Shown: piece by piece, positions 1 to 54,209 of the stretch
Layout of the letters: every line of letters begins with the position of its first letter
How positions within the stretch are numbered: position 1 is the first letter of the stretch
Assembly (NCBI GenBank): GCA_947629765.1
Contig: CANREW010000002.1
Coordinates: 2,737 to 66,736, forward strand
DNA from: an uncultured Clostridia bacterium
GTDB taxonomy: Bacteria; Bacillota; Clostridia; TANB77; CAG-508
Direction: 5' to 3'
DNA: 64,000 nt
Program-made: the position numbers and the translations under genes
The notes under the pieces: model-generated
Told to the model about the DNA's origin: nothing
The model's input: only the letters and a program-made list of their open reading frames with translations
The model's database searches: none

Positions 1-359
1 AACAAATAATATTATACATTGTTGTAGGTTTTGCGATAGCATTTACTATTAGTTACAGATATTCTATGATAGATAAAACTTATTCGAATCTTCAAGCTTT
101 AAAGGGATCTCTTGCAGCAACCCAAAAAGAAATTGCACAATTACAAGCAAATATGGAAAGTACATTGAATTTAAGCGATATAGAAAAACAAGCTGAAGAA
201 AAACTTGGAATGAAAAAATTAGGAACAGAGCAGATAGTATATGTTACACTTCCTAAAAGTGACCATGTAGAAACAAGCTCAGAAGAGATAGAAGAAGAGG
301 AAGAAAGTGACAACTGGTTTATGAAAATAATAAACAAAATAATGGGAACTTTAAAATAA
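1..359 (+). CDS. FtsL/DivIC-like cell-division protein, 5' end cut by window edge
   Basis: Frame is open from nt 3 (QIILYIVVGFAIAFTISY, a TM helix) into the 66..359 ORF. A TM helix, a coiled coil and '..IEKQAEEKLGMKK..' resemble Firmicute FtsL-type proteins. Confidence 0.4.
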   Translation, partial: QIILYIVVGFAIAFTISYRYSMIDKTYSNLQALKGSLAATQKEIAQLQANMESTLNLSDIEKQAEEKLGMKKLGTEQIVYVTLPKSDHVETSSEEIEEEEESDNWFMKIINKIMGTLK

Positions 360-5432: not shown

Positions 5433-5606
5433 TATTGAAAATAACATAATAATGTGATATAATAAAATTTAACTGCCTCTAGTTTGAGGTAAATATCAAA
5501 AAGGAGGTCCCCTAATAATGAAAGGGACACGGAAAACCAGAAACATACTTGCAGTGCTACTCTTGGTAGTGATGGTATTTTCAGTCATCATTGCATTTGG
5601 GGAAAA
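5433..5606 (+). repeat. Copy 1 of duplicated promoter, leader and signal-peptide unit
   Basis: About 170 bp is near-identical to 6231..6402. It contains TTGAAA (5435..5440), a 17-nt spacer, TGaTATAAT (-10 at 5458..5463), the leader hairpin CCTC-TAGTTT-GAGG, the RBS and the first ~28 codons. Confidence 0.8.
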
Positions 5607-6096
5607 ATCTGCCGAAGATTATGATGCCTCATTTAGAAAAGGCATTGCGCTAGGGATTAAAAGAGCTATTGCCGACTACGGCATTTTGTTAGGGGAAATT
5701 CCTAACAAAGAGTATGAAGAACTCGGAAACAAAGAAGATGAAATGATAGCAGAATTTTCTATCCAAAAGGTGCAGGAGTTTAATAAATATCTAAATGGAC
5801 TGACTGGATTATCAGACGAGGATTTATACGAGGAGATACCAGATGGGGATACATTTATCACAGGATACATGATTCAGATACAGAAAAACCTAATTGATAT
5901 GAGTTGGGGTGCAGGAATTATTGAAGAACAGTTCTATTGGGATATTAATGATGTATATGAAGAGTTCGTATCCAAGAAAACAATAACATCCAATGATGTC
6001 CAAAAATATCTGGAAAAAGTAGCAAAAATAGTAGAGGAAAGGTTAGAAACAGAAGGGGATAGCGATTTTAGCTATCCCCATTTACTTAAAAAATAA
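5518..6096 (+). CDS. Hypothetical signal-anchored/secreted acidic protein
   Basis: 192-aa ORF with RBS AAGGAGG and an N-terminal hydrophobic helix (ILAVLLLVVMVFSVIIAF). G+C is visibly higher than the neighbours and it contains an in-frame CGG (5530..5532). Confidence 0.6.
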   Translation: MKGTRKTRNILAVLLLVVMVFSVIIAFGEKSAEDYDASFRKGIALGIKRAIADYGILLGEIPNKEYEELGNKEDEMIAEFSIQKVQEFNKYLNGLTGLSDEDLYEEIPDGDTFITGYMIQIQKNLIDMSWGAGIIEEQFYWDINDVYEEFVSKKTITSNDVQKYLEKVAKIVEERLETEGDSDFSYPHLLKK

Positions 6097-7959: not shown

Positions 7960-8125
7960 TTGTATTAATAATTAAAAAATATCAAAAAATTTTATCATAA
8001 AAATTTTTTAACTAGCATATATTTATAATATAGAATGTAAAATATTAACAAACATGTAAAAATAAAGAAGTATAAATTGACAAACAAGTTAAGCATAGAT
8101 ATAATGAAATTGTTAGGAGAATGAT

Positions 8126-27079: not shown

Positions 27080-27163
27080 GCGGGTGTGGCGGAACTGGCA
27101 GACGCGCTGGTCTTAGGAACCAGTGCCAAAAGCGTGGAGGTTCGAGTCCTCTCACCCGCACCA
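27080..27163 (+). tRNA. tRNA-Leu (anticodon TAG) with encoded CCA
   Basis: Acceptor stem GCGGGTG/CACCCGC, anticodon stem-loop CTGGT-CTTAGGA-ACCAG, a long variable arm and T-loop GGTTCGAGTCC. Length is 84 nt. Confidence 0.93.
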
Positions 27164-27198
27164 TAGACAATTTTCGTCGAACTTTTTGAAAGTCTTGA

Positions 27199-27594
<396 letters not shown>

Positions 27595-27781
27595 ACATAG
27601 GACGGCAAAGCATTTTAGAGATTTAAAAATTATATCGTATTGATTTATTTGTGATATTAAAAATATAATAATTATATATAATTTATAAAATCTCAAAGTG
27701 CCAAATATAGCCAAAACTATGTTATGTGGCACTTTTTTAGTTGCCTTTCTATTCATAAATGGAAGGAGGAAAATTGTAAAA

Positions 27782-29541
<1,760 letters not shown>

Positions 29542-29559
29542 GCAATTTCCTATACAAAA

Positions 29560-29854
29560 AAGTAATCGTATTGTGGGCGAAATTCGTATAAAAAAACGTG
29601 CGAAGGCTTGCTAAAAATTTGTATAAAATTTGCAAAATTTTATACAAATATCGACGCAAAACTGATAAAAATTGTATCAATTTTTATTAGTTTATTTTAT
29701 AAAAAATGAGTGATTTTTTTTATAAAATAATGCATCGATAAAGCCTCGCAGAGCCCCCGAGTTTTGATAGAATGTCAAAACTCATAGGGGGTTAGGAATT
29801 TTGACATAGGTCAAATTCCGTAGCTAACGAAGTAAATGCTAAAGGAGCTTTTCA
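29560..29854 (+). other. Candidate oriT / mob control region
   Basis: Non-coding stretch directly upstream of the MobV gene with three inverted repeats: 29619..29647 (TTGTATAAAATTT-gca-AAATTTTATACAA), 29754..29791 (CCCCCGAGTTTTGA..TCAAAACTCATAGGGGG) and 29795..29819 (GGAATTTTGAC-ata-GGTCAAATTCC). The nick site was not identified. Confidence 0.45.
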
Positions 29855-31249
29855 GTGAGTGAAGAACTCGCCTACTCTATTCATTTAGGAAACGATAAAA
29901 ATAAAACAAATAAAGCAAGAGAAATTGCAAAGAAAAATTCATCAGGTACAACATCATTTTCTAATAATGCTATTCAAAATGCACAATGTTTATCAAAAGT
30001 AAATAAACACAATTTGCGTGATTATGATAATAATAAAGAAATGATAGAAGTAATTTATGGAAGTAATAATCTTTATAAGGATGTTCAAAAATTATATCTT
30101 CAAGAATTTGAACAATCACGAATTGAATATAATGAAAAACAAACTCGTGAAGATAGAAAAATTGAAAACTATTTTAAGCATATATCAGATAGCAAACTTT
30201 GGGACTTGGCTTGTGAATTTGTAATTGAACTTGGAGATATGGATTTTTGGGAAAACAAGACACAAAATTTTCGATGTAAAATGGTACAAGTTTATAAAGA
30301 GCAAGTACGAGATTTAATGAAAATTGTACCTCAATTTAAAGTAGCTAATGCAGTAATACATTTTGACGAAGTATCTCCTCATCTTCATTTAATAGGACTG
30401 CCTATAAGTGATAACAACAAAAGAGGTATGAGAAAACAAGTAGCAAAATCAAAGATATTTACAAAGGAATCTCTATCAAAAATACAAGATGAAATGAGAA
30501 GTTGTTGTATAAAATCGTTCAATAAATTTTACGAAAGAAATTCTAGTTTGAAACAAAAGCAAAAAGGCAGAAATCAAGATATAAATGTAAATGATATGCA
30601 AAATTATAGAGAATTAAAAAGACAACAAGAACAAAACGCTAAAAGACTTGCACAAGCTAATAGTAAATCAGAAAGGCTTGATATAAATGCAGATAAAGTA
30701 AATAGCATACTAGCAGACCTAAAACCTACTAAACTTAATAAAAATAATATGCTTATTTCAAGCGAGAATGTCGCAGAAATAAAAAAACTAACTGAAGAAA
30801 TAAAAGATACAACTGAAACTGTCAGAAGTGTTAATGACTTAAATCTAGCAATAGAAGACTTTGAACATTGTGTATATGATATAGAAAAAGAAAATAGTTC
30901 ATTAAAATATACGTTAGAGCAAAAAGATAAAGAAATAAATTACTTGGAAAGTGAAATAAATGCAAAAGACAAAATTATTAGCAAATTACGAGCTGAAAAA
31001 GAAGTATTAAAAGAGCAACTGCAAAAATTTAAGGGCTTTTGGCACAGTCTTATGAAAAGATTTCAACATAGGTTGGGACTGGACAAAAATGAACATTATA
31101 AGTATGTTGCAGATGACTTATTCGACGCAAGAGTGTTTGACAAGAATGAGCATCAAATTGCAAATGATTTTGGACGAAAGATAAGAACACAAGACGAAAT
31201 TGACTTATCAAAAAGTAGAAAGAAAAATAATAATGATTTAAGATTTTAA
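29855..31249 (+). CDS. mob: MobV-family (Mob/Pre) relaxase
   Basis: 464-aa ORF with GTG start after AAAGGAG, the HxDExxPHxH motif 'HFDEVSPHLHL' and a long coiled-coil C-terminus. Confidence 0.85.
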   Translation: MSEELAYSIHLGNDKNKTNKAREIAKKNSSGTTSFSNNAIQNAQCLSKVNKHNLRDYDNNKEMIEVIYGSNNLYKDVQKLYLQEFEQSRIEYNEKQTREDRKIENYFKHISDSKLWDLACEFVIELGDMDFWENKTQNFRCKMVQVYKEQVRDLMKIVPQFKVANAVIHFDEVSPHLHLIGLPISDNNKRGMRKQVAKSKIFTKESLSKIQDEMRSCCIKSFNKFYERNSSLKQKQKGRNQDINVNDMQNYRELKRQQEQNAKRLAQANSKSERLDINADKVNSILADLKPTKLNKNNMLISSENVAEIKKLTEEIKDTTETVRSVNDLNLAIEDFEHCVYDIEKENSSLKYTLEQKDKEINYLESEINAKDKIISKLRAEKEVLKEQLQKFKGFWHSLMKRFQHRLGLDKNEHYKYVADDLFDARVFDKNEHQIANDFGRKIRTQDEIDLSKSRKKNNNDLRF

Positions 31250-31261
31250 GGAGGAAAAGAT

Positions 31262-31645
31262 ATGAATAATAAATTATCAAAAACAAATGAAGAAAACGGA
31301 ATTGAGTACAATTTAAAAGGAGATTACTATTTCCCAAATCTAACTATTCCAAAACAAGAGAAAATTATTTTAAATAAATATGGTAGAATGAGGCTTAAAT
31401 ACTTAAAAGAATACAAGAAAGCTGAATATACTATAATGCTTATGGACGGAACATTAAATGCACACTTGAAAGAAATACAAGAAATTGCTGAAAAGCAAGT
31501 TAAACAACTTATCTGTGAATTAAAAGCTAAAAGTAACTTGACGGAAGATATGAAAAATACTGATATACTTTATTGGGTAGGCACAATGAACTCTATTAAA
31601 GTACAAGCAGAGGAAGTCGTATGTCGTGAATTAATTTATGTATAA
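31262..31645 (+). CDS. tnpV: TnpV-like transposon protein
   Basis: 127 aa: 'GDYYFPNLTIPKQEKIILNKYGRMRLKYLKEYKK..GTLNAHLKEIQE..WVGTMNSIKVQAEEVVCRELIY' follows the TnpV pattern of Tn4451-type elements as I recall it. Confidence 0.7.
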   Translation: MNNKLSKTNEENGIEYNLKGDYYFPNLTIPKQEKIILNKYGRMRLKYLKEYKKAEYTIMLMDGTLNAHLKEIQEIAEKQVKQLICELKAKSNLTEDMKNTDILYWVGTMNSIKVQAEEVVCRELIYV

Positions 31646-34418: not shown

Positions 34419-35519
34419 TTGAAGTGTTATAGTGAGTTAGAAGAATATTTTGATACTAATAAAATAGAAAAATTTAAGAAAATGAAAGATATCGAAGGTA
34501 AACATATAAAACATCCAATATTGTATTTGATAGAAAATTCTACTCAAGAGTCAAAATATAATACGCAGAAAGCATTCTTTTTATTAAATGATAAAGATAA
34601 TAATTATTTTGAAAGTAAGAAAAAGAAAATTGAAAACGAAAAAAATTTCAGCAATATTAATGGCTATTTAGGGGAAATGAGATGTTATGGGTGTTTATTA
34701 GATGTATTTACTGATAATATTTTAGTAAACCCAATAAAAACAAAAAAAGACAATCAAACAGCAGATTTTGAAGTTGTTAATAAAAAAAATGAAGAAAAAG
34801 TTTATATCGAAGTAAACACAAAGCAATGTAACGGTAATGAATCTAAAAGATTCAAGAATAGTCGTGATGATATACAAAAAAAAATAAAGGAAAAACAACA
34901 AAATAATAAAAATATTCGCAAGCCTAAAGTGGATATATATTTTTCATGTATAGCTCCATTCGGAGTAGGGAAAAATTGTATTGAAACTAATATCAATGTA
35001 ATACAGAAAATTGCTCAAATAAAGAAGGAAAAAAATCAAATACCAAAAGGAGAAAAAGGCATACTATGGCTAGATTTTCAAAGTGAAGGTATACAAGGAC
35101 TACTAAACCTAAATCAAGTTCAGCCACTATGGTATAATAAAAATTATGGAATGTTTTCAGGTCTTATTTGGTATGCTCTATATGGAAAAAAGAAATTACC
35201 AATATTTAGTTCTACTCAATTTAATGATGCTTATAAAGGATTAAGAAAATCATATAAAATGGAACATGATGGTTTATTCTTTCAAAGAAAGGACATTTCA
35301 GCAGCAATAATTTCAAGCGATAAATATGCACTTTATTTTGAAAATCCATTTTGTAAAGAAAAGATACCAATATGGTTTTTAGAAGGAATTTTAAACATAC
35401 CACAATTTTATTATGAATATTCAATAATGCCATTTCCTGATTATAATGTAAAAAAAGAAATCAAAAATAGATATAAAAGAATAAAAGATTTATCTAAAAT
35501 CACCAATATGAATTTTTAA
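34419..35519 (+). CDS. Hypothetical protein
   Basis: 366-aa ORF with TTG start after GGAGAG. 'TADFEVVNKKNEEKVYIEVNTKQ' is faintly reminiscent of a PD-(D/E)xK core, which is speculative. Confidence 0.4.
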   Translation: MKCYSELEEYFDTNKIEKFKKMKDIEGKHIKHPILYLIENSTQESKYNTQKAFFLLNDKDNNYFESKKKKIENEKNFSNINGYLGEMRCYGCLLDVFTDNILVNPIKTKKDNQTADFEVVNKKNEEKVYIEVNTKQCNGNESKRFKNSRDDIQKKIKEKQQNNKNIRKPKVDIYFSCIAPFGVGKNCIETNINVIQKIAQIKKEKNQIPKGEKGILWLDFQSEGIQGLLNLNQVQPLWYNKNYGMFSGLIWYALYGKKKLPIFSSTQFNDAYKGLRKSYKMEHDGLFFQRKDISAAIISSDKYALYFENPFCKEKIPIWFLEGILNIPQFYYEYSIMPFPDYNVKKEIKNRYKRIKDLSKITNMNF

Positions 35520-35564
35520 TAAATTACACAATTTGTATAGAATTTGAAAAAAGGAGGTAAATGT

Positions 35565-35810
35565 ATGGTACCAATACCTAAAAAATATATTAAAGAAATT
35601 AGGAGTGGGAAATTTCCAAAAGAAACAAAAGAATATTTCGTTAATATGGTAAGCAATAGCGAGAAATTACATATTACTAATTGTAAAAATTGCAATAGTT
35701 CTATTTCTGCATCTCAATATATTGATTTTGATGATGTAGATGAAGCATTTAAATTTTTTAAGATATATGGTAAAGATATATCAAGATGTGAGCATTGTTT
35801 TAAAAAATAA
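35565..35810 (+). CDS. Small CxxC...CxxC zinc-ribbon protein
   Basis: The ATG at 35565 follows AAGGAGG. The 81-aa product carries CKNC...CEHC. Confidence 0.5.
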   Translation: MVPIPKKYIKEIRSGKFPKETKEYFVNMVSNSEKLHITNCKNCNSSISASQYIDFDDVDEAFKFFKIYGKDISRCEHCFKK

Positions 35811-35922
35811 TTAGTGCAATATTACATGTTCTGTTACTAAATAGCTATTATTTTTAAGTAGTAATGATACAATCAAAAAATTAACATTTGACAAATCTAT
35901 TAAAAGTGTGTATAATAAAATA

Positions 35923-36008
35923 AAGAAATGAGAATCCACGAAAGTGGTTGCCGTAAAAGTGTAAATAATCATTCTGGATTGGGCAAAAAGCAGAATGATT
36001 ATTTTTTA
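35923..36008 (+). ncRNA. Candidate antitoxin sRNA, copy A
   Basis: TTGACA (35888..35893), a 17-nt spacer and TATAAT (35911..35916). The ~85-nt transcript has a GNRA hairpin CCAC-GAAA-GTGG and the terminator AATAATCATTCTG..CAGAATGATTATT plus T-run. It converges on and overlaps the 3' end of the peptide gene. Confidence 0.5.
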
Positions 36009-36119
36009 TTGCCTATGTAGTAAGAAACAAATGATGATTAACAAGGCAAGGTTTATAAGTGTTATTCCTATCATTCCATAGAACAATAGGTAAGTTATTA
36101 ATAATAAAGCATTTTCCAC
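36006..36119 (-). CDS. Candidate type I toxin, 37-aa hydrophobic peptide, copy A
   Basis: GAGGGGGTGG RBS then GTG: MENALLLITYLLFYGMIGITLINLALLIIICFLLHRQ*. Its own promoter is TTGTAT-17-TATAGT (minus strand, 36258..36230) with a ~100-nt 5' UTR. It is below the ORF-track size cutoff. Confidence 0.55.
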   Translation of the reverse strand: MENALLLITYLLFYGMIGITLINLALLIIICFLLHRQ

Positions 36120-36598
36120 GTTAACCACCCCCTCATAGTCAGTCTCACAAGCTAAACAGCTGTGGAGTAGTTTGCAACATCAAAGAGCAAAAGGGGCAAC
36201 ACACTCCGCTTATTCTCATTTCATTTAACACTATACTACAAGTTTAACTAAAATACAAGCGAACAAAACAAATTTTTGTGATTTTTCATAAATTTTTATC
36301 TAACTATTGCAAAGTATAAAAAGTTATGTTAATATAAGAATGTCAAAAAAAGCCAACATTGTATATACACTTTTAGCAAGGCTTAGAGCCTGTTATATTT
36401 AAGAGTTGAAATAGATATTTTTTTGCCTACTAGATTTCGCAAACGTGTCTAGTTAGGGCACCAACGACGTATCTGTCCGAACTTTATAGAACAGATAGAT
36501 ATAAGTATCATTCTGAAAAAAGATGGTATTTTTTTTATTTTATTTTGTTATTTTCAGTATGTACTGTATTACCCCAAGTTTTACACTATTGGTCAAAA

Positions 36599-36662
36599 AT
36601 CATATGGGGGTTAGGCATCTTGAGATAAGTCAAGTTTCTATGTTACGAGACAAGTTTAAATG
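36599..36662 (+). other. Orphan second copy of the oriT-proximal hairpin region
   Basis: atCATAtGGGGGTTAGGcATcTTGAgATAaGTCAAgTTtC..TAACGAG..TAAATG aligns with 29781..29838 just upstream of mob, but no relaxase gene follows. Confidence 0.45.
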
Positions 36663-36726
36663 TAAAAAATAAAGTATAAATTTAATTAAATATATGTTAT
36701 AATATTTTTATAGAGGTAAAAGTATT

Positions 36727-37221
36727 ATGAATCTTATATTTTTAGATGTAGATGGAGTTATAAATTCAGTCAACAATTTAATTAAGGTATATAATGAGAC
36801 ACATAAACCACACTCCGGATATTCGTATCCTTTTGACTCCAACTGTTTAGAAAATTTAAAAAAATTAGTAATAGAAACAAACTCTAGTCTAGTAATTTCT
36901 TCTACTTGGAGACTTTCTGAAAAAGGAAGAGACACACTGCTACAAGAATTAAAAAAATATGATCTAGACAAATTAGTAATTGGTTATACTCCTTTTTTAG
37001 GTTCTAGTAGAAAAGATGAAATTAAAGATTTTTTATCTAATTTTGAATCTAGTTTTACTACAAATTTTATTATATTAGACGATGATTCTGACATGGGTGA
37101 TTTGCTGCCTTTTTTAGTAAAGACCAATCGTCAAGTAGGTCTTACTGAGGAAAATGTACAACAAGCAATTAAAAAATTAACAAAATCTATTATTAAGGAG
37201 AATGATGACTTTGAAAAATAA
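36727..37221 (+). CDS. HAD-superfamily phosphatase-like protein
   Basis: 164-aa ORF with 'IFLDVDGVIN' (motif I), 'ISSTWR' and 'ILDDDSD'. Confidence 0.65.
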   Translation: MNLIFLDVDGVINSVNNLIKVYNETHKPHSGYSYPFDSNCLENLKKLVIETNSSLVISSTWRLSEKGRDTLLQELKKYDLDKLVIGYTPFLGSSRKDEIKDFLSNFESSFTTNFIILDDDSDMGDLLPFLVKTNRQVGLTEENVQQAIKKLTKSIIKENDDFEK

Positions 37222-37305: not shown

Positions 37306-37332
37306 GAAAAAGCTCTGCTTTCAAGCAGAGCT
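37306..37332 (-). terminator. Terminator of the 37391..37846 gene
   Basis: AGCTCTGC..GCAGAGCT hairpin with the T-run on the minus strand. Confidence 0.7.
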
Positions 37333-37390: not shown

Positions 37391-37846
37391 CTATACAAAT
37401 TCAGGAAAAGGCATTTCTCTCTTGTGATGTTTTACTGCATAAATTTCATTCAAGAAATTCAGCATATATCCAAGATTTTCGTGCTCCTGCAGAAGATTAG
37501 TGTTTTGTTCTCTTTCTTCTCCCGACATATTGTTCCATTTTTTGGCAACTTCATTTGCTTTAACAGCAAGTTTTTGACCTTCTTCTTCTAACTGTTCATC
37601 GGTTAAGTCTTTGTACTTGGCATAGTCAATAACAAATTCTAAATCTCTGAAGAAACTTACTTCATGTTCTTCATCAAACCTTACAAAATCAAACCGATTT
37701 GAGTCATTGACAATAGTTACACCTGTAAATACCTTTGTATAGATAGATACAGGTACTGGCAAGTCACTCTGATTAATCAAATGCATGATATCCTGCATCT
37801 GAACGTAAACAACTTCTTTACCATTTTCTGTGTGGAATAATTTCAT
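37391..37846 (-). CDS. Hypothetical protein
   Basis: 151-aa ORF with RBS AAGGAGG. G+C is visibly higher than the surroundings, and it contains an in-frame CGG (37694..37696) that reads through. Confidence 0.5.
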   Translation of the reverse strand: MKLFHTENGKEVVYVQMQDIMHLINQSDLPVPVSIYTKVFTGVTIVNDSNRFDFVRFDEEHEVSFFRDLEFVIDYAKYKDLTDEQLEEEGQKLAVKANEVAKKWNNMSGEEREQNTNLLQEHENLGYMLNFLNEIYAVKHHKREMPFPEFV

Positions 37847-39328: not shown

Positions 39329-39415
39329 GGCAGAGGTAAGGAGCTTTTGTACTAGTCTCGTAAGTATAGGCTAATATAATTTGACAAAACTAACAAAAGT
39401 GTGTATAATAAAAAT

Positions 39416-39508
39416 AAGAAATGAGAAACCACGAAAGTGGTTGCCGATTTAAAAGTAAATAACCATTCTGTATTTTATTTGTCGTACAAAGCAGAATGGT
39501 TATTTTTA
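39416..39508 (+). ncRNA. Candidate antitoxin sRNA, copy B
   Basis: TTGACA (39381..39386), a 17-nt spacer and TATAAT (39404..39409). It keeps the CCAC-GAAA-GTGG hairpin and has the terminator AACCATTCTG..CAGAATGGTT plus T-run, with compensatory changes relative to copy A. Confidence 0.5.
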
Positions 39509-39619
39509 TTGCCTATGTAGTAAGGAACAAATGATGATTAACAAGGCAAGGTTTATAAGTGTCATTCCTATCATTCCATAGAACAATAGATAAGTTATAA
39601 GTAATAAAGCATTTTCCAC
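39506..39619 (-). CDS. Candidate type I toxin, 37-aa hydrophobic peptide, copy B
   Basis: MENALLLITYLLFYGMIGMTLINLALLIIICSLLHRQ*. It differs from copy A by 2 aa changes and 2 synonymous changes, with identical length, RBS and GTG start. Confidence 0.55.
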   Translation of the reverse strand: MENALLLITYLLFYGMIGMTLINLALLIIICSLLHRQ

Positions 39620-39960
39620 GTTAACCACCCCCTTATAGTAAGTCTCACAAGCTAAACAGCTGTGGAGTAGTTTGTAACATCAAAGAATAAAAGGGGCAAC
39701 CAATTCCGCTAATTCTCATTTCATTTAACACTATACTACAAGTTTAACTAATATACAAGCGAACAAAACAAATTTTTGCAAAAAATTAAATTAATTTAAA
39801 AATTTTATAAAGGTTAATTGTATATAGATTTATAATATGATAAAATATAAATAAATTTCCAAAAATTGTAAAACTTAGAGTGAAAGATTCTTTAAAATAT
39901 AAGAAATTATTGTATAGAATAATAACAATTTATGTATAAATAAAAGGTGAAAAGTAAAAT

Positions 39961-41299: not shown

Positions 41300-43435
41300 A
41301 TGACTAAAAAAATATTTATAATATTGGTTATTGCAATAGCTTTATTTGGCATACAAAAAACTTATGCAATGACTAAGAAAGACGAGATAAATCTTGAAGG
41401 AGAGGAAAAACTAGAAACTCTATTAGAAGTAAACGAAGAAGAATGGAAGGACTTAGAAATCCTCAAATATAGCGAAGATAATGGAATCATATATAAGCTA
41501 GGTAGCAATGAAGGAAATACTAATATAACTATTTCAGATGAGATACAAGATACAGCAATAATTACAATACTTGCGAATGGTTATAGTAAAAAAGATGCTC
41601 AAACACTTGGTGTTAGTAATTCAAATGATGCATATATTGCAACTAAAATTGCACTAGACTGCGCAAGTAAAGGAATAGACAAAGATAGCATTGAAAATTA
41701 TTTTAGAGTAAAAGAGAATTTAGAATCTCCATTAAAAGAAAGAGCAGAAAATATAATAGAAACGGCAAAAAATCTTTTAGGTATAACAAAAAATGACTAC
41801 TTTGCTAGTGGTATTGAAATACAACAAACAGGAAATATAGAACTAGATGAATTTAATGAAGAATATTGCTCACAAAAATATAAAATAATAACAAGTAATT
41901 GTATACCTAAGAAATATAATATATCAGATTATAGCAATTTTATAAGTGAAGTATTTTCAACAAATAATGAAGGAGTAAGAAAAGACAATTTTTCTATGGA
42001 AGAAGATTCTAATATATTTAGAATAACAATGCCAAAGGAATATAGAACAGAGGCATTTGAAGGAAAATTTAAGCTTGAATTAATATACGAAAAAAATACA
42101 GCATATTTTGGAAAAAATGGAGATAGCACATACATAATTTTTACTGATAAAGAAGAAAGAAAATCATTTAATGTATATCTTCTTAATAAAAAATCTTCTA
42201 TATCTATAACTGTAAAAGATAAAGATAAACCAAGAACAGTTATAGAAAATGTAAAAATAAAAATCAAAGATGAAAATAATTTAGTAAATGATACTTATAC
42301 AAGCAATAGTCGTGGATCAATATTTGTAACAAGGCTTGGGAAAGGCAATGTTCAAATGGAAGTTTTAGAAGTTCCGCAAAGTTATGTTTTAGAAGAAACT
42401 TTATATAATAAGAATCTGGATTACAGTGAGTATTGTGAATATACTATAAGTTTGAAATATAAAAAAGGTAGCTTACACATAAATAATAATGCAAAAGGAG
42501 CAATGTTTGAGATTTATGATAAAAATTCAGCTTATATTGGAACATATCAAACTAATGAAGATGGTGAGATTCAAATAGATGAAATTAATATAGGCGAAGA
42601 TTATATCTTGAAACAGATAAGTGTACCTGACGGATATAAAATAGTAGAAGATAGCAAATTTTCAATTCTATACAATGAAACAACAACTATTGATATTGTA
42701 AATGAAGAAATAATAAAAGAAAACCAAAAAGAAGAAGGAAACGAAAAAGGCAATGGTGAAACAGATTCTGACGATGATGAAAATAGTAGATTGCCAAGTG
42801 TAGATGGTGGAAACGGACAAGTAGAAGATAATGATAATAAAGCAAAACAAGAGCAAGAAGATAAAAAAGAAACACCAAATATAGGGCAAGAGGAAAACAA
42901 GGAAAACGAACCAGAAAAACAAGAAGAACCAAAGGAACAAGACAAAATAAATAAAACAGAAGAAGTTATAGAAAACAATGAAACAAAAGAAGAGGAAAAT
43001 AAAGAATATGAACCAGAAAAACAAGAAGAACCAAAAGAACAAGACAAAATAGATAGAATAGAAGAAGATATAGAAAACAATGGAGCAAAAGAAGAGGAAA
43101 ATAAAGAAAACAAACCAGAGAAATCAGAAGAATCAAAAGAACAAGACAAAATAGATAGAATAGAAGAAGTTATAGAAAATAACGAAGAAAAAGACATACA
43201 AAAAGAAAATGAATCAAACCTTGAAAACCGAAATAATGCAGATAGTAAAGAAGACACAGACAAAAATAGTATTTCTAATTCAACAAATGATAATATTAAA
43301 ACCGAAAATGCAAGTCCAAATAAGTTACCAAGAACAGGATACGATTTTCCAGAAATTAAACCATGGCACATTATACTAATAATATTTATACTCTTATACA
43401 TATTAAAAAGGACCGCTAAATCGCAGTCCAAATAG
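41300..43435 (+). CDS. LPXTG-anchored surface protein with SpaA/Cna-B-type prealbumin-fold domains and an acidic repeat stalk
   Basis: Signal peptide MTKKIFIILVIAIALFGIQKTYA, '..NEDGEIQIDEINIGEDYILKQISVPDGYK' type domains, and a C-terminal LPRTG followed by a hydrophobic helix and KRTAKSQSK. Confidence 0.8.
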   Translation: MTKKIFIILVIAIALFGIQKTYAMTKKDEINLEGEEKLETLLEVNEEEWKDLEILKYSEDNGIIYKLGSNEGNTNITISDEIQDTAIITILANGYSKKDAQTLGVSNSNDAYIATKIALDCASKGIDKDSIENYFRVKENLESPLKERAENIIETAKNLLGITKNDYFASGIEIQQTGNIELDEFNEEYCSQKYKIITSNCIPKKYNISDYSNFISEVFSTNNEGVRKDNFSMEEDSNIFRITMPKEYRTEAFEGKFKLELIYEKNTAYFGKNGDSTYIIFTDKEERKSFNVYLLNKKSSISITVKDKDKPRTVIENVKIKIKDENNLVNDTYTSNSRGSIFVTRLGKGNVQMEVLEVPQSYVLEETLYNKNLDYSEYCEYTISLKYKKGSLHINNNAKGAMFEIYDKNSAYIGTYQTNEDGEIQIDEINIGEDYILKQISVPDGYKIVEDSKFSILYNETTTIDIVNEEIIKENQKEEGNEKGNGETDSDDDENSRLPSVDGGNGQVEDNDNKAKQEQEDKKETPNIGQEENKENEPEKQEEPKEQDKINKTEEVIENNETKEEENKEYEPEKQEEPKEQDKIDRIEEDIENNGAKEEENKENKPEKSEESKEQDKIDRIEEVIENNEEKDIQKENESNLENRNNADSKEDTDKNSISNSTNDNIKTENASPNKLPRTGYDFPEIKPWHIILIIFILLYILKRTAKSQSK
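42887..43192 (+). repeat. Three tandem 102-bp (34-aa) repeats inside the LPXTG gene
   Basis: The unit EENKE(N/Y)(E/K)PEK(Q/S)EE(P/S)KEQDKI(N/D)(K/R)(T/I)EE(V/D)IENN... occurs three times head to tail. Confidence 0.85.
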
Positions 43436-54180: not shown

Positions 54181-54209
54181 TTGACAAAATTTAGAAATGG
54201 TGCTATAAT
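54181..54209 (+). promoter_or_regulatory. Near-consensus sigmaA promoter driving the GC-rich RNA element
   Basis: TTGACA (54181..54186), a 17-nt spacer and TGcTATAAT (-10 at 54204..54209). Confidence 0.7.

Follow-up and report, generated by a model that had tools for sequence, protein, structure and literature searches.

A 64-kb window of an uncultured Clostridia bacterium (assembly GCA_947629765.1, contig CANREW010000002.1, positions 2,737 to 66,736; "the window" below means this whole stretch of DNA) carries two copies of a compact two-gene module, module A (35886-36278) and module B (39379-39778). In each, a gene for a hydrophobic peptide of 37 amino acids (aa) faces a gene for a predicted small RNA (sRNA), and both genes end in one shared terminator. 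An earlier reading of these letters (the original prediction) had proposed module A as a candidate type I toxin-antitoxin (TA) locus. Here, we report that every part of that proposal open to testing on sequence held, and that it held throughout a family of modules, beyond the one locus. Each module is probably a type I TA cassette, and of a previously undescribed family.

Results

The window is AT rich, with a G+C content of 25 to 30% around the locus. The consensus plus-strand promoter of the original prediction is a full match in both modules (Table 1). Such perfect TTGACA-17-TATAAT sites number four in the window, against 0.08 expected from shuffles, and two of them are the sRNA promoters of modules A and B. 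The remaining two lie at 8077-8105 and 54181-54209. The RNA of ~85 nt with a GNRA-capped hairpin was recovered as a predicted transcript of ~86 nt, which folds (-22.4 kcal/mol, z = -3.9) into a single-stranded, purine-rich 5' end carrying the motif GAAAUGAGAAU, a small hairpin (hairpin 1), and a 14-bp terminator. The terminator had been placed at 35965-36003, overlapping the stop codon of the peptide gene. The hairpin is there, but the overlap has to be redrawn, as the stem directly abuts the stop codon and it is the U-tail of the sRNA that covers it.

On the minus strand, the TTGTAT-17-TATAGT promoter, the leader (put at ~100 nt originally, ~105 nt here), and the strong Shine-Dalgarno sequence (SD) were all found where they had been placed. 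Both the promoter and a TTTGTTTTGTTCGC block upstream of it are conserved in the subfamily alignment. The promoter went unlisted by the promoter scanner because its -35 hexamer matches the consensus at only three of six positions, and by its sequence it would be weaker than the sRNA promoter. The predicted peptide mRNA folds at -60 kcal/mol (z = -2.0). The GTG-initiated, 37-codon hydrophobic open reading frame (ORF) was confirmed, and the alignment of homologs supports its start. The SD aligns with GGAGGUGG of other subfamilies, and alignment with relatives shows that the ancestral ATG of this subfamily has been replaced by AAC, so that the start is the former Val2 codon, GTG, which settles the 37-aa reading. 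A 40-aa ORF beginning at GTG 36128 in the automatic ORF list was rejected; that codon lies inside the SD, and the ATG of the homologs precedes GTG 36119 by one codon.

Table 1. Positions and predicted features of modules A and B in the window
Feature	Position	Strand	Remarks
A, sRNA promoter TTGACA-17-TATAAT	35888..35916	+	consensus match 12/12
A, predicted antitoxin sRNA, ~86 nt	35923..36008	+	ends inferred from promoter and terminator
A, order within sRNA	35925..36004	+	GAAAUGAGAAU (35925-35935), hairpin 1 CCAC-GAAA-GUGG (35936-35947), UUGCC, variable linker, terminator
A, shared bidirectional terminator hairpin	35963..36004	both	14-bp stem, 14-nt loop; region of sRNA/mRNA complementarity
A, putative toxin promoter TTGTAT-17-TATAGT	36230..36258	-	TTGTAT 36258-36253, TATAGT 36235-36230; read from sequence
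A, predicted putative toxin mRNA, ~267 nt	35958..36224	-	~105-nt leader; ends inferred from promoter and terminator
A, leader 5' end	36202..36222	-	GAAAUGAGAAU (36222-36212), then AAGCGGAGUG (36211-36202)
A, leader elements, predicted SD/start sequestration	36164..36196	-	CCCCUUUU (36196-36189), GAUGUUGCAAACUACUCC (36181-36164)
A, SD GAGGGGGTGG (as RNA, GAGGGGGUGG)	36125..36134	-	5 nt upstream of GTG
A, putative toxin ORF, 37 aa	36006..36119	-	MENALLLITYLLFYGMIGITLINLALLIIICFLLHRQ; GTG 36119-36117, TAA 36008-36006
B, sRNA promoter TTGACA-17-TATAAT	39381..39409	+	consensus match 12/12
B, predicted sRNA, ~93 nt	39416..39508	+	terminator 39457-39505, loop longer and different
B, putative toxin ORF, 37 aa	39506..39619	-	I19M and F32S relative to A; SD 39634-39625
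B, putative toxin promoter TTGTAT-17-TATAGT	39730..39758	-
A and B, GAAATGAGAAT sites	35925-35935; 36222-36212; 39722-39712	+; -; -	one-mismatch fourth site at 39418-39428

A word-index protein search with the single 37-aa peptide gave no candidates, so an exhaustive phmmer search (1.84 billion representative proteins) and then a profile search were needed. The former found 10 relatives, and the profile built from them found 98 clusters, down to E = 2.5e-5. Once miscalled upstream starts are trimmed, nearly all members are 36 to 42 aa long, with the consensus M(V/I)ExxLLxIxYLLFYGLVGxTIIN(V/I)ALIIxLxxxL followed by SK(QQ) or HRQ; E2, the two glycines of a G-x-x-G (G15-x-x-G18), and a mid-membrane asparagine (N23) are nearly invariant. 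The module A peptide has an unbroken apolar stretch (A4 to L34) between E2 and H35-R36 and is predicted to be a single-pass membrane peptide with a short basic/polar C terminus. The original prediction had recognized no named family in it. Accordingly, searches with the peptide or the family profile found no match in Pfam or NCBIfam at E <= 10 and nothing significant in PHROGs or among PDB sequences; none of the 98 clusters has a Pfam domain (except one entry with a miscalled start) or a meaningful name, and the peptide motifs of the family were not found in the literature searched. Phage and plasmid collections gave no match by blastn (module) or tblastn (family peptide), searches in which the low-complexity filter may mask hydrophobic peptides, and a scan of viral contigs for the SD-start pattern gave 0 matches.

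The original prediction also turned on conservation of the small ORF in homologous repeats. Beyond the 98-cluster family itself, 60 of 61 complete copies at the DNA level have an unbroken ORF, and in the subfamily of the window the ratio of nonsynonymous to synonymous polymorphism (pN/pS) is 0.34 for the coding frame, compared with 1.06 and 1.24 for the other frames. Two other subfamilies have 0.53 and 0.52 in frame, against 1.35 to 1.55 in frame +2.

For the two-gene architecture, the comparison covered 36 non-redundant modules, drawn from metagenomes of rabbit, human gut, and other origin. They came from a genome scan with an SD-start pattern (nine loci, all in rabbit-gut Clostridia metagenome-assembled genomes [MAGs] of different species), from contig lookups (three more distant members, beside spo0A, ruvC, and priA/addA), and from a metagenome scan with the SD-start pattern of the distant subfamily (24 more, from human-gut and other samples). 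A near-consensus promoter on the opposite strand, TTGAC(A/T)-16..18-TATAAT, lies ~110 nt beyond the stop codon of the peptide gene in 35 of the 36, including members whose peptides are 45 to 55% identical and whose chromosomal contexts are unrelated. All predicted sRNAs follow a common plan of 5' motif, small hairpin, GUU(G/A)CC, variable linker, and a terminator shared with the peptide gene. Hairpin 1 persists throughout the family, with one A-U/G-C double change and several G-U variants. In all modules the terminator hairpin forms on both strands, and its stems represent at least six unrelated sequences; the stem of module B has one compensatory change relative to module A (T-A to C-G). The U-tract of the terminator is consistently better on the sRNA strand, the toxin strand having 1 to 5 U in 8 (mostly 3 to 5).

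RNAalifold, run on MAFFT alignments, missed both the helix between SD and anti-SD and the terminator because their arms cannot be aligned by sequence; sequences were then folded one by one. Rfam gave no hit at the gathering score in the whole window and nothing relevant at E <= 10 within 35500-36800. An upstream ORF starting at an AUG in the 5' motif was considered and rejected: L032, L040, and L041 have no such AUG, L019 has a stop codon directly after it, and in L010 and L014 single-base indels put it into another frame.

Module B is 92 to 95% identical to module A, with edges that are sharp on both sides; neither terminal inverted repeats nor target-site duplications were seen at the edges of the two modules. 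Other copies stand in mixed contexts, near genes for Mob_Pre, UPF0236, N6_Mtase, or RhuM, or beside the core genes prfA, priA, ruvC, and spo0A, in some cases between core genes (for example, prfA and a ZIP transporter gene), and two MAGs each carry a pair of copies, on separate contigs. The cassette behaves as a self-contained unit, moving from one context to another. Two copies have decayed, and both have lost only the toxin side while keeping the sRNA gene, an indirect hint that the peptide may be toxic. In L002, which is the same element from another sample, a 38-nt frameshifting deletion between GGAA microhomologies interrupts the module B ORF (L002 3282-3377); the locus is otherwise unchanged, sRNA gene included, which makes this a natural null allele of the peptide. 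L012 (~5560-5790) has an intact convergent sRNA gene but no toxin promoter, and its leader lacks the first ~25 nt; an N6 DNA methylase gene on the same strand stands 110 nt upstream of this module, which may be silent or cotranscribed with it.

The leaders of L004, L009, and L013 contain an insertion of ~69 nt between direct repeats of AATAAGCGG, which brings them to ~172 nt; the inserted sequence is conserved among the three.

The original prediction had named SD sequestration by the 5' untranslated region as a point to check by folding. In the minimum-energy fold of module A, ACUACUCC...GAUGUUG is paired with GGGGGUGGUUAACGU, covering the SD and part of the start codon. Two leader elements are predicted to sequester the SD and start codon, namely CCCCUUUU, at the family-wide anti-SD position, and GAUGUUGCAAACUACUCC, an insertion peculiar to the subfamily of the window. 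In distant subfamilies, the leader sequence GCCACCU pairs with GGAGGUGG with a probability near 1. The anti-SD element tracks the type of SD across the family: CCACC pairs with GGUGG, CCUCC with GGAGG (one lineage), and CCCC/CUACUCC with GGGGG. On average, the SD is paired with a probability of 0.85, compared with 0.63 when leaders are shuffled, and the corresponding values for module A are 0.72 and 0.64; the predicted sequestration signal is real but moderate, and weak for module A alone.

In the K37 and KQQ subfamilies (for example, L048 and L016), the stretch encoding T-I-I-N-(V/I)-A-L (ACTATCATAAAYRTTGCCTTRAT) shows almost no nucleotide variation, even at synonymous sites, and the start region UAUG(A/G)UAG has a complement in CUAUCAUA. 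The pattern suggests an additional constraint at the RNA level in these ORFs, where a downstream box may sequester the start codon.

Pairing of the two RNAs at their 3' ends, also part of the original prediction, is borne out by cofolding, which gave a perfect 51-bp intermolecular duplex. The change in free energy on pairing (ddG) is -48.6 kcal/mol for the cognate RNAs of module A and -47.5 kcal/mol for those of module B, and only -5.6 and -7.3 kcal/mol for the cross pairs sRNA-A/mRNA-B and sRNA-B/mRNA-A. No significant sRNA/mRNA pairing was found outside the overlap (RNAduplex versus shuffles). Mean pairwise identity within the subfamily of the window is 0.93 in the ORF, 0.94 in the sRNA 5' domain, 0.96 in the terminator arm beside the stop codon (the 5' arm in the mRNA sense), and 0.85 in the other arm; it is 0.47 in the terminator loop, 0.40 in the linker, and 0.34 to 0.51 in flanking DNA. 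By these figures, copies appear to differ mostly where the two RNAs would first touch, and because the differences are concentrated in loop and linker, each sRNA is predicted to act on its own mRNA only. The sole conserved part of the loop is GCUU(U/G)G, on the 5' side on the toxin strand, which holds a YUNR-type sequence that may be comparable to the U-turn that starts pairing in par (PMC7472228).

The original prediction had described the two promoters and initial transcribed regions as an inverted duplication, and this was found to be so, with GAAATGAGAAT at the predicted 5' ends on both strands. The window has three exact copies of this 11-mer, all of them at predicted 5' ends of module RNAs. 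Throughout the family, both RNAs start with the same-sense motif (A)GRAAUGAGAA; because the repeat is inverted on the DNA, the motif is identical, not complementary, in the two RNAs. Locus-specific variants are common to both RNAs (AAUGUGAA in L019, AAUAAGAA in L032, and GAAGUGA in L041), and cognate sRNA and mRNA 5' ends are more alike than non-cognate ones (ten lineages; 0 of 20,000 permutations as good, p < 5e-5). The motif evolves in concert within each locus, which a simple type I model leaves unexplained; gene conversion, or a binding site for a shared protein or RNase, is a possible reason for its upkeep.

Just behind the motif, the leader sequence AAGC(A/G)GAGUGUG is complementary to the 5' arm of the terminator of the same mRNA in 21 of 21 distinct modules, at the same positions (AAGCGGAGUG with CAUUCUGCUU in module A), with pairing energies of -13.5 to -20.7 kcal/mol (z of -1 to -3.5). 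Covariation was not detected between leader and arm, cognate combinations being no better than non-cognate ones (p = 0.11), and the pairing is absent from the minimum-energy fold. A helix between the 5' end of the mRNA and a 3' extension made by read-through was dropped, as neither the substitution pattern nor the strand bias of hairpin 1 favors it; on its side stands a call of terminator-like structure on the toxin strand of module B (39442-39427), formed by the complement of hairpin 1 and the motif.

Comparison with known systems

The modules share with the type I class a hydrophobic peptide of <60 aa, a predicted complementary antisense RNA, and predicted sequestration of SD and start codon. 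The original prediction likened them to par/fst, and like par (Fst/RNA II of Enterococcus faecalis pAD1; Fst/Ldr) they have convergent promoters and one common bidirectional intrinsic terminator (PMC7472228, PMC8594479), the place where pairing starts in par (PMC7472228). Complementary stem-loops as the likely first contact, intramolecular SD sequestration, a peptide of ~33 to 37 aa with one transmembrane helix, and an ORF that is not overlapped beyond its end are further likenesses. In T1TAdb, the antisense RNAs of Fst/RNAII and SprA1/SprA1as lie on the 3' side with partial overlap and leave the ORF essentially uncovered (PMC8594479), a layout that the modules share. The likeness does not extend to the 5' repeats, since DRa and DRb of par are complementary and block the fst initiation site, whereas the repeats here are inverted and identical in both RNAs. 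Unlike Fst, the peptide family has no Pfam match (Fst_toxin), no PXXXG, and no transmembrane proline, and unlike that of par, the sRNA has no Rfam match. With no toxin homology, no direct repeats, and no match to the Rfam model, the modules are not members of Fst.

A likeness to the txpA/RatA and bsrG/SR4 layout had also been proposed and stands in part. As in txpA/RatA, bsrG/SR4, bsrE/SR5, and yonT/SR6 of Bacillus subtilis, the predicted cis-antisense RNA overlaps the 3' side of a gene for a small hydrophobic peptide. The Bacillus systems are often on prophage or other mobile DNA, and in them 3'-end pairing leads to RNase III-dependent decay of the toxin mRNA. By analogy, decay of the same type after 3' pairing would be the favored mechanism here. 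The overlaps of txpA/RatA and bsrG/SR4 are ~75 to 120 nt; the one here is shorter, at ~50 nt, and is made up of the terminator, reaching no farther into the ORF than its stop codon. The peptide is unrelated to TxpA/BsrG, BsrE/H, and YonT (no match in Pfam, NCBIfam, or PHROGs), and T1TAdb has the antisense RNA overlapping the ORF in those Bacillus families (PMC8594479).

Relative to SprA1/SprA1AS, the sRNA here has an anti-SD-like element in some subfamilies, with no significant or consistent predicted pairing. Clostridial type I systems are known from Clostridioides difficile (CD0956.2/RCd10, CD2517.1/RCd8, and CD0977.1/RCd11, among others), several of them on prophages or mobile elements as proposed stabilizers, with toxins of 34 to 59 aa that have a transmembrane segment and a charged C terminus (PMC6563280, PMC7699646) and are described as unrelated to other Gram-positive toxins (PMC6563280). 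The C terminus here has only one or two basic residues, a difference drawn from descriptions, and the window shows no association with CRISPR or a cyclic di-GMP riboswitch, unlike the C. difficile modules. As in hok/sok and aapA1/IsoA1, the leader is complementary to the 3'-terminal region of its own mRNA in every member; in hok mRNA, fbi/tac pairing forms a long-distance 5'-3' lock. Unlike in those systems, no covariation of the complementarity was detected here, the pairing is absent from the minimum-energy fold, the mRNA is not known to be processed, and the antisense RNA would target the 3' end rather than the leader. Because membership in the Fst and Bacillus families failed, with the C. 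difficile families compared by description only, the modules were filed as a new type I family.

Discussion

We favor a type I TA cassette in which the weaker promoter would drive an mRNA of ~265 nt for the 37-aa single-pass membrane peptide, one that as made would translate poorly because the leader elements pair with the SD and start codon. The facing consensus promoter would supply an abundant sRNA of ~86 nt that ends at the same bidirectional terminator, and it is this common terminator that makes the 3' ~50 nt of the two RNAs (stem, loop, and toxin stop codon) perfectly complementary. Judged by their hexamers, a consensus-strength sRNA promoter and a weak toxin promoter would fit an excess of antitoxin. 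First contact would most likely be a kiss between the complementary terminator loops that spreads to the ~51-bp duplex; the duplex would mark the peptide mRNA for double-strand-specific cleavage and decay and might also lock the closed leader. Were the cassette lost or sRNA synthesis stopped, the sRNA, presumed to be the shorter lived, would vanish first, and the peptide would be made.

Several points weigh against this reading. Both transcripts and their ends were placed from consensus signals, and a peptide that is small, hydrophobic, and under antisense control is not necessarily a toxin. The retrieval patterns contained the SD and start codon, which biases the collection toward intact 5' ends. 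In two subfamilies, pN/pS hardly separates the coding frame from frame +1 (0.53 versus 0.60 and 0.52 versus 0.57), so the coding case rests mainly on the open ORF and on a hydrophobic pattern maintained at 45 to 55% identity. Covariation in hairpin 1 amounts to a single double-change pair, and the anti-SD signal exceeds that of shuffled leaders moderately, for module A by the small difference given above. The ~50-nt overlap is a stable hairpin in both RNAs, so that pairing competes with intramolecular structure, and the hypervariability of the loop could be neutral drift instead of selection for specificity.

The same cassette might work differently. The sRNA could act through its non-overlapping 5' domain, binding the SD and start codon in trans as par RNA II or Staphylococcus aureus SprA1AS would, with the terminator overlap as docking only. 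That domain copies the leader motif and carries an anti-SD-like GUGGUUGCC(AC) element; the 5' half of the sRNA resembles the anti-SD-bearing leader segment (in L032, AUGUGGUUACCAUC versus AUGUGGUUGCCACC), UACCAC or ACCAUC could pair with GUGGUG beside the SD in several subfamilies, and in Fst/RNAII and SprA1/SprA1as, the two known families whose antisense RNA does not overlap the ORF, the interaction is outside the overlap (PMC8594479). We consider this unlikely, since RNAduplex comparisons of the 5' domain with leader and ORF were no better than with shuffled sRNA (z mostly -1.4 to +2), predicted target sites are inconsistent between subfamilies, the UUGCCG after the hairpin in the subfamily of the window meets its GGGGG SD only through G-U wobbles, and the repeated 5' sequences are same-sense, not complementary. 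A 5'-3' lock like that of hok or aapA1, or an antitermination switch, has somewhat poorer prospects. Here, the leader AAGC(A/G)GAGUGUG would pair with its own terminator arm, or, in a variant, a read-through isoform would extend to the sRNA start site and the 5' motif of the mRNA would pair with the complement of the sRNA motif; 3'-end formation or processing would govern expression of the toxin, with the sRNA as a competitor that mimics the leader. The invariable position of the complementarity in 21 modules, the likeness of cognate 5' ends, the terminator-like call on the toxin strand of module B, and the weaker U-tract on that strand all speak for such a lock. They are met by the cognate test at p = 0.11, by the absence of the pairing from the minimum-energy fold, and, for helices involving the motif, by a hand tally of aligned 5' ends in which differences between motifs are not biased to G-U-compatible changes; moreover, the G-U pairs of hairpin 1 in the sRNA sense would be A-C mismatches in the mRNA sense, and conservation of the module ends at the sRNA -35 element, contrary to the read-through variant. 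The common 5' motif and the GUGGUUGCC element admit one further conjecture, to which we give a small probability: leader and sRNA may be same-sense paralogs, the leader resembling the 3' arm of the sRNA terminator because it is complementary to the terminator arm of its own mRNA, and by mimicry they may compete for the 3'-end site of the peptide mRNA or for the same protein or RNase. If so, termination, read-through, or 3' processing of that mRNA would be coupled to opening of the SD, a hok-like 5'-3' lock on a par-like chassis that is undescribed for Gram-positive type I systems.

That the peptide is no toxin at all, but a small membrane protein tuned by a cis-antisense RNA (for example, a modulator of a membrane complex or of a stress response), would suit the many members that lie between core genes (spo0A, ruvC, priA/addA, and prfA) and not on mobile elements, and E2, G-x-x-G, and N23 could equally serve specific helix-helix contacts. 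Yet the cassette is self-contained, multicopy, and sharp edged and moves between unrelated contexts, a strong antisense promoter, a weak sense promoter, and SD sequestration form the pattern of genes to be kept off, and decayed copies drop the peptide side and keep the sRNA; we hold this reading to be improbable. By far the least credible is a non-coding repeat or miniature mobile element with incidental ORF and promoters. Its appeal lies in a multicopy unit of ~390 bp with sharp borders and inverted repeats near both ends, but those repeats are internal (from the -10 element to about +35), not terminal, no target-site duplication was seen at modules A and B, and the peptide is kept to 45 to 55% identity with its length and hydrophobic pattern, in ORFs that are almost always intact and have pN/pS below 1. 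A type I TA cassette acting through its shared terminator is the reading we prefer.

On that reading, the modules would add a new type I TA family for organisms in which almost none are known; most of the hosts are spore-forming gut Clostridia that are uncultured and come from the microbiomes of rabbit, human, and other sources. Genes this short usually escape gene callers, and neither Pfam nor Rfam has a model for the family. Should the peptide prove toxic, the cassettes would help to explain the upkeep of small mobilizable elements and chromosomal islands, and they would offer compact counterselection markers as well as naturally orthogonal RNA-RNA pairs for engineering Clostridia, the latter because no cross-reaction is predicted between modules A and B. 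They would also allow a clean study of how a distant ribosome-binding site can be controlled by pairing limited to a terminator hairpin. The concertedly evolving same-sense 5' motif of the two RNAs is a specific, testable oddity.

Genomic context and minor observations

Upstream of the modules, a tRNA-Leu gene (27080-27163) is followed by genes for a large serine recombinase, a Mob_Pre relaxase (29855-31249), and TnpV (31262-31645). The recombinase is split over two frames (resolvase domain at 27879-28151 and recombinase/zinc-ribbon part at 28159-29541). The stretch 27080-31645 looks like a Tn4451-like mobilizable element whose recombinase is possibly disrupted, unless a sequencing frameshift is responsible. 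Downstream of these three genes, modules A and B form part of the cargo, a placement that would fit a role in stabilizing the element. SpoIVA and Spo0A are encoded just downstream on contigs with the same genes, and the host is a spore-forming member of Clostridia. A neighboring 88-aa protein has no match on record.

A second conserved intergenic block (36282-36463, reaching to ~36545) abuts the toxin promoter of module A. Beside the module, its identity is 94% in L014, 84% in L005, and 97% in L006, and a 70-nt piece of it was found in L010, 4 kb from the module of that locus. The block has a plus-strand promoter-like site (TTGCAA-17-TAATAT), a small hairpin (36379-36391), and no Rfam match; a terminator-like hairpin with a long T-run was seen by eye at ~36507-36545, a site that the consensus scan of the region does not list. 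The block may represent a further small RNA gene.

A perfect 9-bp, GC-rich palindromic hairpin (AGCTCTGCTT..AAGCAGAGCT, 37311-37332), called terminator-like on both strands, stands between a convergent HAD-family gene (36727-37221) and a 151-aa ORF (37391-37846). Farther downstream, three tandem 102-nt repeats that are 85 to 89% identical (42888-43193) lie within the gene for a 711-aa protein, which ends in LPRTG and a hydrophobic tail and whose identical counterpart in L002 has a SpaA match in Pfam; by these features, it is probably a sortase-anchored surface protein with a Glu/Lys-rich repeat region.

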